The notes under the pieces: model-generated
Databases searched by the model: none
Told to the model about the DNA's origin: nothing
What the model saw: the letters and a program-made list of their open reading frames with translations, nothing else
In this document: positions 45,684 to 49,829 of the stretch, one piece after another
How the letters are laid out: each line of letters begins with the position of its first letter
Position numbering within the stretch: position 1 is the stretch's first letter
Position numbers and translations under genes: made by a program
Origin: Blastocatellia bacterium
GTDB lineage: Bacteria; Acidobacteriota; Blastocatellia; UBA7656
Reading direction: 5' to 3'
Assembly: GCA_963765495.1 (NCBI GenBank)
Contig: CAVXWP010000004.1
Span: forward strand, 96,001-160,000
Length of the DNA: 64,000 bases

Positions 45684-46166
45684 TTATCCGGTGCGCCCGG
45701 TCTCGTAAATCAAGTGTCCAAGCTCCATCTCCTTAGCCAGATAATCAGAAAGCTGTTGCGCCTTTTCCTCTGACGGCGCATCCAGACCCAGCAGTTCTTT
45801 GGAATGCCATTCCCACAGACATCCCATCTCTTCCATCTTATTCATCACTTCATCAGGCGAACCGGGATGAGTCGTCTCTTTGAACCATACCCGGAAACTG
45901 TAGTGACCCGATTTCCAAACAATCTGCCGGATCAGGTATTGAGGCTCTCCCTCTGTAGTGGTTTCTACGTGATCGCCAAGGTCAAGGTCATAGATAAAAA
46001 ATGGTATGCAGCATATCTCGAAAAGGTTTCCGTTAAGCTTTCTGGCCCAGAGTTGTTCGAAGCGCCCTCCGGGCACGTCATCTTCAAGCCGGGCCATGAT
46101 GATGAAGTCGGCCCGATCACGCCAGACAGGATTCAGGTGAACAGCTATGTTCTCTTCATTAATCAT
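45684..46166 (-). CDS. DUF4265-like protein, candidate immunity protein
   Basis: EQLWARKL...FEICCIPFFIYDLDLGDHV...SGHYSFRVWF; starts 3 nt after the toxin stop. Confidence 0.72.
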   Translation of the reverse strand: MINEENIAVHLNPVWRDRADFIIMARLEDDVPGGRFEQLWARKLNGNLFEICCIPFFIYDLDLGDHVETTTEGEPQYLIRQIVWKSGHYSFRVWFKETTHPGSPDEVMNKMEEMGCLWEWHSKELLGLDAPSEEKAQQLSDYLAKEMELGHLIYETGRTG

Positions 46167-46169
46167 TTA

Positions 46170-49100
46170 TCAAGGCTTCTTTCCAGCCAGACTTCGCAGC
46201 CAGTCCGGCCAGTGAAGAGGCGGCCACTGACCCGTATAACCGGCCGGTGGTGTCTTCGGATAAAAATCGTCCTGCTTTGAAGTATTGCAATGGTTGCAGG
46301 TAAGCTGCGCGTTTTGAATTGTCGCATCTCCGCCCTTTTCCCTCGGATACGCATGATCGACATCTGTAGCCGTTCCCGGACGAGCGCAATAGACGCAGGT
46401 CTTTGTGGGGTCCGCAGCAAAGGCCTGATCCTTTACCCTGTCTGAAAATTTCTGTTTGGCAGTCGGCCCGCCATGCGTTCCGGGTTTTATCGTGGGCCCC
46501 TTGATCTGCGCGACATTTATATGCAGATTGCGCAAATCCCCCTCATGCTGGTTCAGCTCATCTTGCAACCTGTCACGGTCGGCTGTTGCCTTTTGATATT
46601 CGTCTATGAGTGCTTTCTTCTTGTCCCCCCTGGCATTCCGTATCTGCCCCGACAGGGAGCCGACCTTTCCCTGAGCTTTGCCCAGTTTGGTTTTCTTGGA
46701 ATTTATTTCCGCCTTCTTCTGCTCAATCTTCTGATCGAGAGCCGCCAGTTTCTCATCGTGAGTCGGGCTCTTTGCCGGGGCGGCGGCGGGATGCGTTCCC
46801 TGCGCATGTGTACCGCCAGTCTGTTTAGCCGGGGAACCCTGCGCGGCGGGCGGGGCCGGTTTTGACGCAGCGCCGGAAGGCTTTCCTTGAGCTGCATGCG
46901 CGGGATGAGAAATCGGCGGCGCGCTGACCCCTTGAGCCGCAGAGGATGGTTTGCCAGGGCTTGCCGAAGCCGTTACAGGTTGCGTGGCAGGCGCGCCTGC
47001 CGGAGGGGCCGGATGGTAAACAGTCGGGCCGTGTGTTCCCGTCGCTGCCTGCTGAGATGCCTGGTTCTGCTGTCGCTGGGCCTCCAGGGCTGCCTCGGCT
47101 TCGGCTGCCTGTCTTTTTTGTCGGTACTCCAACCCGCGCTCGATCGGCGTTGCGGTTTTCTGCGCCGGTGCCGGTTTATCAGGGTGAACATCAGACGTAT
47201 GAAGAGGCGCTTTTTGGGGAGGCGCTGCGGCTGGCTTACCCGACATAGTATCGGCAGCCCCCTGTCTTTTTTGCCTATACTCCAACCCGCGTCCAATCGG
47301 TGTTGGAGGGGGAGGCGCAGCCGCCGGAGGCTGATTCACAGGCGCAGCGGCCGAGGACTGATTCACAGGCGCAGCGGTCGGTTTATCAGGATGAATATCG
47401 GCAGTCGGATGAACGGCATTTGCAGGCTGCGCGCCACTGGATGATGCGCGCCGATCACTCAATTTCGTTACCGGCTTTTGGGTCTTCAACTGCGGCCCCC
47501 TGCGACCCTTCGCATCACCTATGGAATGAACTGTTCCTCCCTTTGAAGCCGGCGCACCCTGTTGATTGGCTGCCGGGAGGTGGTCAGGAGCATTTGTTGA
47601 AGGGGCTGGCGCAATGTGCGTGCCAGAGGTCACAGAAGTCCCGCCTATCGCTCCGGCATCTGCCGGAGCAGGTTTTGCGGTACCAGCCCCCGTGTGCTCG
47701 CCCGATTGCAGCCCGGTGTCGGCAGGGGGCCTTGCAGGGGGCGAAGAAGGCGGCAGATCGGTATCAACCTTACCTTTAGCAGCCGGATCGGAAGCGTGCA
47801 TCTCCGTATCAACTTTACCTTTAGAAGCCGGGCCGGATTTGGGCTTTCCGGGTTGAGCAGAGGTGTGTCCGACCGGAGGGCCAGCTTTGGGTCCAAATGC
47901 CTTCTTCCCGGCGCTTATCCCCTTAGAAATGAGTTTGTCAATCAACTCGCTGGCAATTCTTTTGGCGATGGCTTGCGAAGCAAGATCAATCTCATCCGGG
48001 GTGCGGGCGTAAAGCGCTATATTTCCCGTCTTTCCAACCCATTCGGCAAGCTCCATGTATCTGGCTATTTGCATCGTCCCTTGAATGAGTTGACCAACAC
48101 CCGGAAGGCGTTTCCCGATCAGTTCTATTCCCTCCGAAATAAGTTGATTCAAGACCTCGCGCCCGATATTTTTCAGTCTGTCATCAAGGTCGGTTGCAAA
48201 AGCCCACGGCAGATATTTCACCGCATTGCGAACTGCGGTAACCAGATTCTCGTAATTTCGCTCAGGCTCGCCCTTCTGCTTGAGCGATTGTGAGATGATA
48301 AAGGCCACTCCTCCTTTAGCGCCCGCCGCCGAGGACAACTGCTCTTTCGCGGGCACGTATCCCGTTAATACCTTTGTTATATTTACTTCCCCTTCCCCGG
48401 CCTCGACTCCATTATCAACCCGGACGGCAGCATACATGCGTTGAGCGGTACTTGAGGACGCACTGCCGATCAGGCTGCCTCCGACAAAATAGGTGCCGGG
48501 CTTCATCGTCACAGTGCCTACATTAAGTGTTGATCCTGAAAAGTAGCCGGATCTATCGAGAAGATAAACTCGATTGCTCGTGACATAGTAAACCTGCTGT
48601 GTAGCGTCAAAGAGCGTCAGTTCGTCTTCGGCTACGGGCCAGGGTTTGGCGTCGTAGCGTTTCCCGAGCGCCTCGATTGCCTTCCCAACCGTCACCGCTT
48701 TCAACCGCGCCAGCCCGCCTTTGATCTCGCCTTTGCCTCCCTCTGAGATACCGAGTCTCTCGGCCTGCGTCTGCGGTTGAGCCTGGACATCAGTAGCGAT
48801 GGCCATGCCGGATGATTTTTGCTGAGCGGCCTTCTCCGGCGGAGGCTTCTTATCATCCTTCTTCTTATTGGCCTCCTCTTTTTTCGCGGCGATATGTTTC
48901 AGCAGTGCGCGTGATGTTTCCGGGTCCAGAACGCCGTCGACCTTTCTGCCGGTTGCCTTCATCATGTCTGTCTGAAATTCGGCAATCGCATCAATAAACG
49001 GTTTGGCGCTTTCAATCGCTTTATTATCATCTATAACTTTTATGTCGATTTTTTTATCGTCGCCGGTTTCTTTATATGTCTGGTTGGATTTCGTATCCTC

Positions 49101-49829
49101 CCATAATTTCCGCAGCTTTTCATCATAAGGCCAGCCCGGAGGGACCATTTTTCTGAAATGTGTTTCAAATGCTCTATTAGCCGTGAAGGCCGTCTTATAA
49201 AAATTCGGACTTCTTGTCGGCTTCTCCTTCAATGCCAGCCCCGGCGCGCTGTTTCCTGAAACCTGAACAACCCCGCTGCTCGATCTGACTCCATCGGCGG
49301 CTCTGTCGGCGCTTTGCTCGATTGAACTTGTGGCAGGCATTGCCCGATGGTTTGCGCCTCCCCTGGATTGCTGAACAACGTGCGCCAGTTCATGCGCCAG
49401 CAGATGCCTTCCGCTGTCGGTCTCAGGAAGGTACTGCCCGGGGCCAAAAACAACGTCATTGCCTATCGTATATGCATAGGCGTTTATAGCCTCGGCAGAT
49501 CTTTCTGCTTTATGACCCGTGTGGATGCGCACTCGGCTAAAGTCCTGATCAAAGCGTGACTCCATATAACTTTGAGTCCTCGAGTCAATCGGCTGCCCGG
49601 TGCTGTTCAAACCATTCAGGGCAAGGGGTAATAGCAGACGCGAACGGGCCGTTTCGCCAGAAGCGCCAGGAGCAACGAGGTCTGCAAACGCTCGATTGCT
49701 CAGAGCCAGTTGCTCGGCTTGAATGTTCGTATGCGCAACAGACCGAGATTGTGGCGGCCCCGCCGCACGGTGTTTACTTTTCTCTCCGGCGGCTTCCGCT
49801 TTCGAGGATTTTGATGATTGCCCAGACAT
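46170..49829 (-). CDS. DUF4157 (eCIS core) domain protein with C-terminal HNH nuclease toxin
   Basis: MESRFDQDFSRVRIHTG...A.AYTIGNDVVFG...LLAHELAHVVQQ, Pro/Ala-rich linker, coiled coil, and CVYC...DVDH..PR.KGGD....NAQLTCNHCNTSK. Confidence 0.88.
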   Translation of the reverse strand: MSGQSSKSSKAEAAGEKSKHRAAGPPQSRSVAHTNIQAEQLALSNRAFADLVAPGASGETARSRLLLPLALNGLNSTGQPIDSRTQSYMESRFDQDFSRVRIHTGHKAERSAEAINAYAYTIGNDVVFGPGQYLPETDSGRHLLAHELAHVVQQSRGGANHRAMPATSSIEQSADRAADGVRSSSGVVQVSGNSAPGLALKEKPTRSPNFYKTAFTANRAFETHFRKMVPPGWPYDEKLRKLWEDTKSNQTYKETGDDKKIDIKVIDDNKAIESAKPFIDAIAEFQTDMMKATGRKVDGVLDPETSRALLKHIAAKKEEANKKKDDKKPPPEKAAQQKSSGMAIATDVQAQPQTQAERLGISEGGKGEIKGGLARLKAVTVGKAIEALGKRYDAKPWPVAEDELTLFDATQQVYYVTSNRVYLLDRSGYFSGSTLNVGTVTMKPGTYFVGGSLIGSASSSTAQRMYAAVRVDNGVEAGEGEVNITKVLTGYVPAKEQLSSAAGAKGGVAFIISQSLKQKGEPERNYENLVTAVRNAVKYLPWAFATDLDDRLKNIGREVLNQLISEGIELIGKRLPGVGQLIQGTMQIARYMELAEWVGKTGNIALYARTPDEIDLASQAIAKRIASELIDKLISKGISAGKKAFGPKAGPPVGHTSAQPGKPKSGPASKGKVDTEMHASDPAAKGKVDTDLPPSSPPARPPADTGLQSGEHTGAGTAKPAPADAGAIGGTSVTSGTHIAPAPSTNAPDHLPAANQQGAPASKGGTVHSIGDAKGRRGPQLKTQKPVTKLSDRRASSSGAQPANAVHPTADIHPDKPTAAPVNQSSAAAPVNQPPAAAPPPPTPIGRGLEYRQKRQGAADTMSGKPAAAPPQKAPLHTSDVHPDKPAPAQKTATPIERGLEYRQKRQAAEAEAALEAQRQQNQASQQAATGTHGPTVYHPAPPAGAPATQPVTASASPGKPSSAAQGVSAPPISHPAHAAQGKPSGAASKPAPPAAQGSPAKQTGGTHAQGTHPAAAPAKSPTHDEKLAALDQKIEQKKAEINSKKTKLGKAQGKVGSLSGQIRNARGDKKKALIDEYQKATADRDRLQDELNQHEGDLRNLHINVAQIKGPTIKPGTHGGPTAKQKFSDRVKDQAFAADPTKTCVYCARPGTATDVDHAYPREKGGDATIQNAQLTCNHCNTSKQDDFYPKTPPAGYTGQWPPLHWPDWLRSLAGKKP

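Follow-up and report, generated by a model that had tools for sequence, protein, structure and literature searches.

A DUF4157 cargo gene and a DUF4265 gene in a contractile injection system locus

The window analysed here is a stretch of 64,000 nucleotides from a Blastocatellia bacterium (phylum Acidobacteriota; assembly GCA_963765495.1, contig CAVXWP010000004.1, positions 96,001 to 160,000). On its minus strand it carries a complete contractile injection system (CIS) locus, in which Pfam and NCBIfam matches and, for the PAAR protein, inspection by eye identify genes for an ATPase, a cargo protein, a DUF4265 protein, the cap, sheath, tube, spike, PAAR protein, baseplate and fibres (Table 1). 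The core set of an extracellular CIS (eCIS) of the Afp/PVC/AlgoCIS type is present, namely: sheath, tube, gp5-type spike, PAAR, gp25, Baseplate_J, a Pvc16/Afp16 cap, an AAA+ ATPase and DUF4157. Two adjoining genes of this locus are the subject of the present analysis: one encodes a cargo protein of 1219 amino acids (aa) that carries DUF4157 near its N-terminus and an HNH domain at its C-terminus, and the other encodes a DUF4265 protein of 160 aa. Our comparisons suggest that the HNH tip and DUF4265 form a polymorphic toxin-immunity cassette that elsewhere mainly ends Rhs toxins and is here joined to a DUF4157 eCIS cargo protein.

A preliminary description of this DNA, made from the letters alone, had already proposed a nuclease toxin with a neighbouring immunity candidate. 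The two open reading frames (ORFs) that it gave are exact in position and strand, both domains that it named in the cargo protein, including the HExxH motif of DUF4157, score significantly in Pfam, and the pair does lie between the genes of the AAA+ ATPase and the Pvc16_N cap. The second product, which it had called acidic and DUF4265-like, is a full member of the DUF4265 family (89 bits against a cut-off of 27) with an isoelectric point (pI) of 4.73 and a net charge of -14, while the charge of the HNH tip is +5. The junction between the two genes reads TGA TAA ATG, and its 3-nt gap is itself a second stop codon. Scans for promoters and terminators between the genes of the locus returned no excess, with counts at or below shuffle expectation.

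The cargo protein is built from distinct parts. Its first 79 residues are basic (pI 10.4), with P/A/Q/S/G/T making up 57% of them, and are a candidate loading signal by analogy with the N-terminal domains of Cgo1 and Cgo2, two proteins carried by AlgoCIS (see below). Beyond DUF4157 lies a middle region for which Pfam gives sub-threshold matches only (residues 161-650, E ≤ 1), the ESM Atlas gives nothing usable, and a word-indexed search among proteins of 670-2134 aa gives no homologue. It is followed by a low-complexity linker, 69% of which is P/A/Q/S/G/T; the linker contains a 27-nt tandem repeat at 47313-47381, and in its translation a peptide block of about 20 residues recurs in similar form, both blocks being closed by a basic motif. 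The charged helical segment directly before the tip returns only weak coiled-coil-type matches in Pfam and NCBIfam (Kre28, ASRP).

Table 1. Genes of the injection system locus and parts of the cargo protein, with their positions in the window
Feature	Position	Strand	Basis
BTAD-domain transcriptional regulator, heading the locus	52454..53398	-	Pfam BTAD E 1.3e-16
AAA+ ATPase (WHD + AAA), Afp15/Pvc15/Alg15-like candidate cargo loader	49895..52138	-	Pfam WHD E 6.2e-35, AAA E 1.5e-28
DUF4157 cargo gene, 1219 aa	46170..49829	-	ORF + Pfam
Cargo residues 1-79, basic region rich in Ser/Ala/Gly/Pro, candidate loading signal	49593..49829	-	translation
Cargo residues 80-157, DUF4157 / eCIS_core with HExxH	49359..49592	-	PF13699 E 5.7e-32
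Cargo residues 158-650, orphan middle region	47880..49358	-	no Pfam family reaching threshold
Cargo residues 651-1020, low-complexity Pro/Ala/Gln-rich linker with internal repeat	46770..47879	-	composition + translation
Cargo residues 1021-1108, charged, helical and coiled-coil-like segment just ahead of the tip	46506..46769	-	weak matches
Cargo residues 1109-1219 + stop, HNH toxin tip (putative)	46170..46505	-	HNH E 3.4e-9, residues 1145-1187
Cargo residues 1192-1203, conserved proline-rich tail, predicted DUF4265 contact site	46221..46256	-	co-fold + alignment
DUF4265 gene, 160 aa, candidate cognate immunity protein	45684..46166	-	PF14085 E 2.7e-25
Pvc16_N cap / tail terminator with CarboxypepD_reg domain	44667..45614	-	Pfam Pvc16_N E 9.9e-21
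Remaining CIS structural genes	24994..44606	-	Pfam + NCBIfam
Sheath	42627-44606	-	Pfam/NCBIfam
Tube	42171-42608	-	Pfam/NCBIfam
CIS_tube + LysM protein	40368-41054	-	Pfam/NCBIfam
gp5-type spike	38492-39187	-	Pfam/NCBIfam
PAAR-like ORF, 93 aa, between the spike and gp25 genes	38200-38481	-	recognised by eye, below the 95-aa ORF cut-off
gp25	37422-37832	-	Pfam/NCBIfam
Two Baseplate_J genes	31014-37425	-	Pfam/NCBIfam
CIS13-like fibres and Ig-domain proteins	down to 24994	-	Pfam/NCBIfam

The HNH tip is shared with Rhs and other carrier proteins

The similarity of the cargo C-terminus to other proteins begins at about residue 1110 and continues to the end. When the last 121 residues were compared with 1.84 billion representative proteins, 782 clusters were found at E ≤ 1e-3, 225 at E ≤ 1e-10 and 23 at E ≤ 1e-30. 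The tip ends at most 25 residues from the C-terminus in 147 of the 149 representatives listed, which are between 70 and 3045 aa long; many of these proteins are short and consist of the HNH domain only, and may be fragments. Among the proteins scanned, Rhs, SpvB or PT-HINT domains are present in 17 of the 83 with E ≤ 1e-5 and in 8 of the 66 with E ≤ 1e-12, and the other carriers include one Trypsin_2 and one dockerin protein. A single one of the 149 listed representatives, P0026 (1114 aa), has eCIS_core/DUF4157; its layout is that of our cargo protein, i.e. DUF4157, a long linker, a charged helical segment and then the tip. The same tip thus stands on unrelated carriers (Rhs, SpvB, PT-HINT, Trypsin_2, dockerin and DUF4157), as is characteristic of polymorphic toxins. 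Another tip protein, P0012 (1164 aa), contains the HNH tip twice in tandem, both copies having a proline-rich tail of their own, and shows no DUF4157 at E ≤ 1e-5.

An alignment of 50 sequences of this clade has 10 invariant columns, comprising two CxxC pairs, a DH dyad, two Asn, a Ser and a Pro, and the cargo protein retains 10 of 10. Its key residues are the zinc-finger Cys quartet (1145, 1148, 1178 and 1181), D1158-H1159, N1173 and N1182. The features of the beta-beta-alpha-metal motif of HNH / His-Me finger nucleases (PF01844), namely the DH with its catalytic His, a structural Asn, a metal-binding Asn/His and the two CxxC pairs, are therefore all present, in agreement with the above-threshold Pfam match, and the tip is a putative nuclease, probably a DNase. 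The AlphaFold2 (AF2) model of the tip, tail included, has a predicted local distance difference test (pLDDT) score of 92.4. The nearest solved folds are the HNH domains of Cas9, IscB and Cascade type, which match weakly (probability 0.98, best E 0.02), and sub-threshold NCBIfam matches to IscB and Cas9d agree with these neighbours; a Foldseek search with the tip model gave no match at E ≤ 0.001.

The proline-rich tail that closes the protein was described earlier as unusual. This view has to be corrected, since alignment and comparison of C-termini show the tail to be kept throughout the HNH tip clade (the 225 clusters at E ≤ 1e-10), of which it is a conserved signature; it is also the predicted binding site of the immunity candidate (see below).

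DUF4265 genes accompany the tip

Among contigs from one genome per species, relatives of the DUF4265 protein are encoded at 7 loci. The closest DUF4265 protein in the genome collection (50% identity) comes from a Gemmataceae metagenome-assembled genome, where its gene directly follows that of an Rhs-PT-HINT-HNH protein whose tip is 59% identical to that of the cargo. In an Armatimonadetes genome, a DUF4265 gene (38% identity) directly follows the gene of an Rhs protein with a 42% identical tip. At a third locus DUF4265 belongs to an array of small ORFs next to an Rhs fragment and an insertion sequence element, and two further copies are degraded, through a frameshift in one case and a truncation in the other; the remaining two are taken up below. 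The pairing of the two genes on other carriers, which the preliminary description had suggested looking for, is thus found on Rhs proteins. In a 401-genome sample of the window's phylum, DUF4265 occurs in 8 genomes and the tip in 2, and DUF4265 adjoins the tip in both of these; the second tip genome encodes a 1625-aa Rhs protein with DUF4265 8 nt after it.

A larger sample was obtained from metagenomes, which were scanned with a 74-sequence DUF4265 alignment. The best 80 of 229 relatives were used and their loci were searched with local hidden Markov models (HMMs) of the tip and of DUF4265, a full tip being one that covers at least 80 of 102 model positions. Fifteen of the 80 loci, with less than 350 nt of upstream sequence, were set aside, although 5 of these still had a partial tip. 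A full tip lies immediately upstream on the same strand in 36 of the 65 assessable loci, with 9-55 nt between the HMM envelopes, and many loci have the stop codon of the toxin gene touching or overlapping the start codon of DUF4265. A further 6 of the 65 have only the 3′ end of a tip upstream. Of the 36 loci with a full tip, 23 have upstream ORFs of at least 250 aa that were scanned for domains (L067, which has an internal stop in the tip region, was dropped): 9 contain Rhs, YD-shell or PT-HINT domains and none contains DUF4157.

The tip and DUF4265 also diverge in parallel. For 33 pairs, pairwise identities between tips and between DUF4265 proteins are correlated with a Mantel r of 0.82, which was reached in 0 of 2000 permutations, and the two genes thus travel as a unit. 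This layout has counterparts among known toxins. In Dickeya dadantii, the carrier of the RhsB-CT/RhsI-B system reportedly ends in an HNH DNase tip, and a small immunity gene lies immediately downstream; the carrier there is an Rhs shell, whereas here it is a DUF4157 eCIS cargo protein, and the comparison concerns the layout.

Some DUF4265 loci have further features of their own. The six 3′-remnant loci (L036, L057, L069, L070, L071 and L096) keep just the last 20-40 codons of the HNH tip before DUF4265; judged from the sequences, this is the pattern left when recombination displaces Rhs tips. L120 has a weak tip-like match 1.2 kb from its DUF4265 gene. Candidate in-frame HNH-DUF4265 fusions in the metagenome loci were rejected, as a stop codon is present in each. 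Among database proteins only P0014 (405 aa) has both domains in one called ORF, together with the end of an Rhs core, and this could be a genuine fusion or could stem from the gene calling. Rhs systems include orphan tips as well as orphan immunity genes, and orphan cassettes are common in polymorphic toxin loci without being obligatory. No orphan tip or immunity cassette lies downstream of our pair, and the window's genome has a single DUF4265 gene and a single tip of this clade; arrays and remnants were observed at other loci alone.

DUF4265 is predicted to bind the proline-rich tail of the tip

The AF2 model of the DUF4265 protein (pLDDT 93.1, predicted template modelling score 0.88) consists of an N-terminal beta-barrel followed by a ferredoxin-like alpha/beta domain. 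The family alignment of 74 sequences has 16 invariant columns, defined with the window protein as the first row. The sole solved match to the model is PDB 5ueb (Foldseek E 4.7e-8, TM 0.72/0.80; profile search E 1.4e-4), a hypothetical protein of Neisseria gonorrhoeae solved alone by structural genomics, which shares 17-18% identity with the window protein; it was reached by profile and fold search, a PDB sequence search with the single protein having given nothing meaningful. The accessible part of one article refers to this structure as unpublished (PMC8466066), and a full-text search of the literature for DUF4265 or PF14085 found no functional description, the one paper that names DUF4265 being unrelated, to judge by its title and abstract.

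We co-folded the tip, with the alignment of the 50-sequence clade, and DUF4265, with its own alignment, in three runs and with three controls. The interface scores (ipSAE, the interaction prediction score from aligned errors) of the runs are 0.80, 0.00 and 0.68, i.e. a median of 0.68, while the best of the three controls scores 0.00; the partners have pLDDT values of at least 83. The mark applied is reached by 116 of 157 solved complexes and by 2 of 215 mismatched pairs, counts that are only rough when the alignments are user-made. Memorised structures are unlikely to account for this result, since no DUF4265 complex has been solved and only the apo structure 5ueb matches. In the best run, the confident interface consists of tip residues 94-105 and 118-119 (protein residues 1192-1203 and 1216-1217) on one side and, on the other, of DUF4265 residues 2-24, 36-43 and 75-77, which lie on the beta-barrel. 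Thus, DUF4265 is predicted to bind the tip at its proline-rich tail. The catalytic residues are outside this interface, so that any inhibition would, if the model is right, be of the exosite kind.

Such a mode of action has a precedent of sorts in the colicins E7 and E9, where the small acidic product of the next gene (Im7 or Im9) neutralises a basic HNH DNase inside the producer, with inhibition through an exosite beside the active site. The Im proteins are four-helix bundles, a fold unrelated to the modelled beta-barrel and ferredoxin-like domain of DUF4265, and the predicted contact here is instead the C-terminal proline-rich tail.

A protein that is predicted to sit on a terminal peptide and not on the active site, and that goes along with the tip on carriers of several kinds, might also act as a chaperone or adaptor, either by stabilising the HNH tip or by passing it on to the delivery machine; Eag and DUF4123-type adaptors serve type VI secretion system (T6SS) effectors in this way. 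We consider this role very unlikely for DUF4265. Its gene is immediately downstream and translationally coupled, which is the position of an immunity gene, and, in the manner of immunity genes, it persists as toxin-less orphans and next to 3′ remnants of tips. Moreover, a single adaptor would need to serve both the Rhs and the eCIS routes, and the strongly acidic character of DUF4265 faces a basic nuclease. With the adjacency in 36 + 6 of 65 loci, the parallel divergence and the co-fold (median 0.68 against 0.00), DUF4265 is likely to be the cognate inhibitor of the tip, and the earlier proposal to this effect thereby gains computational support.

The carrier is conserved at its N-terminus and variable at its C-terminus among relatives

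The cargo protein has a match in 30 of 41 related genomes. N-terminal matches span only residues ~29-261; for the HNH part the sole matches are small HNH ORFs that are unrelated, and nothing matches the middle of the protein. DUF4265 is found in 2 of the 41, the window's own genome counted. Six loci of relatives were examined, in none of which HNH or DUF4265 was found. Four of them have the cap and ATPase genes followed by 3-4 DUF4157 genes; in the fifth the ORF before the ATPase is without a Pfam match, and in the sixth no cap or ATPase gene lies within the stretch fetched. Among the C-termini of the tandem DUF4157 genes of these loci (2-4), the identifiable ones are Peptidase_M91, Aspzincin_M35 with PG_binding_1, and SH3_3. 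A conserved N-terminal part, putatively for trafficking, is thus combined with variable C-termini, as in polymorphic toxins, and the cargo is built in the way that was first proposed for it: DUF4157 is conserved, and the C-terminus is not common to the relatives.

After DUF4157, at about residues 280-310 of the cargo protein (window 48900-49000), there is a weak, sub-threshold PG_binding_1-like stretch (E 0.082). One relative's DUF4157 protein (L124:10546-13098) has a significant PG_binding_1 match at the same relative position (E 2.8e-8). These matches hint at a cell-wall-binding module in some cargo proteins. LGT-like genes (prolipoprotein diacylglyceryl transferase family), an odd companion for an injection system, lie between DUF4157 genes in two of the relatives (L122:8333-9601 and L125:6340-7545). 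Small unannotated ORFs are also found between the DUF4157 genes of the relatives' loci.

This architecture agrees with what is described for other eCIS. DUF4157 is an eCIS core domain; toxins have it N-terminally, and their linkers are sometimes longer than 1000 aa (Geller et al. 2021, PMC8213781; seen in part, as are the other sources cited by identifier here). The eCIS-associated toxins of that study share with our cargo protein the N-terminal DUF4157, the very long linker and the C-terminal toxin domain, and in its supplementary file 4 DUF4157 is counted 990 times in eCIS operons and 4,492 times outside (PMC8213781). In AlgoCIS of Algoriphagus machipongonensis, the cargo has its loading signal in the form of a disordered N-terminal domain, and an AAA+ protein probably unfolds the cargo (preprint 10.64898/2026.05.27.728243). 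Cgo1 and Cgo2 resemble the protein described here in their three-part layout, with an N-terminal loading region (here a candidate one), then DUF4157 and a variable C-terminal effector, and the AlgoCIS locus likewise has an AAA+ ATPase; Cgo2 is of similar length (1228 vs 1219 aa). For Cgo1 and Cgo2 the accessible part of the preprint mentions no nuclease tip or immunity gene, whereas our protein has a tip shared with Rhs proteins and a DUF4265 neighbour (10.64898/2026.05.27.728243).

It could be argued that the protein is a recombinant, formed when a tip cassette from an Rhs gene landed in a DUF4157 gene, and that it is never loaded but exported otherwise or idle. DUF4157 is present in only 1 of 149 other listed tip-bearing representatives, the middle 490 residues have no detectable relatives, and DUF4265 is counted 0 times in eCIS operons and 1912 times outside in the 2021 catalogue (PMC8213781, supplementary file 4; 3 of the 15 supplementary files lay outside the search). 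Set against this, the frame of 1219 codons is intact with every invariant tip residue kept, the independent protein P0026 has the same succession of DUF4157, linker, helical segment and tip, and the gene fills the cargo slot beside the ATPase, as in the relatives. An unloaded protein therefore appears quite unlikely to us.

Proposed action of the pair and its target

Taken together, we regard it as probable that the two genes encode a cargo nuclease and its cognate immunity protein, linked by coupled translation, tail-bound neutralisation in the producer, stripping during ATPase-driven loading and delivery on contraction. The cargo and DUF4265 genes would be co-translated across the TGA-TAA-ATG junction, and the acidic DUF4265 would bind the basic tip, its N-terminal beta-barrel clamping the conserved proline-rich tail as an exosite, and not the catalytic residues. 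Bound in this way, the nuclease would spare the DNA of the producer. The AAA+ ATPase, whose role in cargo loading we propose from the work on AlgoCIS and PVC, would then recognise the cargo N-terminus and unfold the protein into the tube, thereby stripping off the immunity protein. After contraction the tip would refold in the target and degrade its DNA, and sister cells with DUF4265 would be protected. The order of the genes, their domains, the intact motifs, the sharing of the cassette, the adjacency counts and a co-fold that stands out from its controls are results of the analysis; DNase activity, inhibition, loading, stripping and delivery, as well as the target, we infer.

A number of observations speak against this interpretation. 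In the window the gene order is ATPase-cargo-cap-sheath, whereas the relatives examined have a cap-ATPase-cargo array. DUF4157 is dispensable for loading in AlgoCIS (10.64898/2026.05.27.728243), so that this domain is no proof of cargo status. HNH is not enriched in eCIS operons, with 4 occurrences against 89,737 outside (odds ratio 0.5; PMC8213781), and HNH_5 is counted 0 times in these operons and 10,316 times outside (PMC8213781, supplementary file 4). As to the pairing, 23 of the 65 assessable metagenome loci have no tip upstream of DUF4265, and two of the 7 genome loci are intact and adjoin GNAT and AP_endonuc_2 genes without a toxin; the toxin-less genome copies beside GNAT or AP_endonuc_2 are L025, L029 and L031. 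These tip-less genes are explicable as orphan immunity genes, but another role of the family fits them too. The parallel divergence of two adjacent genes shows joint travel and not interaction. Finally, of the three co-fold runs one gave a score of 0.00, the runs are guaranteed to agree in only 6% or more of their contacts, and with the catalytic residues outside the confident contacts the interface gives no plain account of how binding would inhibit the enzyme.

The existence of an immunity gene does not settle what the nuclease is aimed at. Any DNase made in the cytoplasm needs immunity, so that the gene alone cannot separate bacterial, self and eukaryotic targets. A few eCIS toxin-immunity pairs have been reported, and the authors of the 2021 study take immunity genes as support for an antibacterial use (PMC8213781). 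Here, the apparent Rhs ancestry of the tip and the weak PG_binding_1-like stretch lean towards a bacterial target without being decisive, and we favour another bacterium by somewhat more than an even chance. A eukaryote, which was missing from the options of the preliminary description, is distinctly less probable but deserves to be kept in mind, and the producer itself is unlikely. The CIS13-like fibres and Ig-domain proteins are only suggestive of a released particle that acts from outside the producer.

A purely self-directed module, in which the nuclease kills the producer upon loss of immunity, be it for the release of particles or as part of development, and in which there is no other target, was among the options raised earlier. 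The cytoplasmic CIS of Streptomyces is said to mediate developmentally regulated cell death, and a tightly coupled inhibitor-toxin pair does resemble a toxin-antitoxin gate. Geller et al. likewise raised the idea that eCIS toxins may contribute to lysis of the producer (PMC8213781). The same cassette, however, stands on Rhs toxins, which are exported weapons, and the full set of fibre and Ig-domain receptor-binding candidates together with the PAAR spike fits an attack on another cell, for which reasons a self-directed death module is in our opinion decidedly improbable.

Delivery of a nuclease held in check by a cognate immunity protein remains our preferred explanation. A toxin-immunity pair on an eCIS cargo protein is in itself a known kind of system: the pair validated by Geller et al. 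combines a RES-like NADase with an Xre-like antitoxin, in place of the HNH nuclease and DUF4265 seen here (PMC8213781). For most antibacterial eCIS toxins no immunity gene can be recognised, and how producers survive making and loading them is described as an open question (PMC8213781); our locus would be a rare case of a cargo protein with a clear immunity partner. What is new is the assignment of DUF4265 and the specific predicted interface. Immunity to one HNH toxin clade would be the first functional assignment for DUF4265, and one that can be tested, the proposed tail clamp being specific enough for this purpose. It would also imply that Rhs toxins and eCIS cargo draw on a common pool of toxin-immunity cassettes.

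The most far-reaching form of this explanation is that DUF4265 is a previously unrecognised immunity family that clamps the proline-rich tail of one HNH clade, that the locus is a bacteria-targeting eCIS with kin protection, and that the AAA+ loader must pull the nuclease out of its immunity complex. We put this combination forward tentatively, and as a whole it is more doubtful than probable; if true, the locus would be a tractable natural system for studying how a toxin dangerous to its producer is loaded. Neither the tip clade nor its pairing with DUF4265, nor either of them in eCIS, was found in the literature searched, although the supplements of polymorphic-toxin surveys were outside the search and could name the family differently. 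Articles joining contractile injection system, HNH and immunity protein mostly concern T6SS, together with a Gram-positive polymorphic toxin system and Xenorhabdus genomes, among the matches listed; the papers in which DUF4157 and HNH appear jointly are of a general kind.

Further genes in the window and elsewhere in the genome

The window's genome has one cargo gene at the CIS locus and one stand-alone DUF4157 gene elsewhere. The latter (L003:1312-1812, contig C8, minus strand) is far from the CIS locus and encodes 166 aa with an HExxH motif and without an effector domain; an adjoining 351-aa ORF resembles an AAA+/HTH activator by eye. Within the window, a gene for a 1748-aa hybrid sensor histidine kinase/response regulator (18904-24150, minus strand) lies directly downstream of the last fibre gene.

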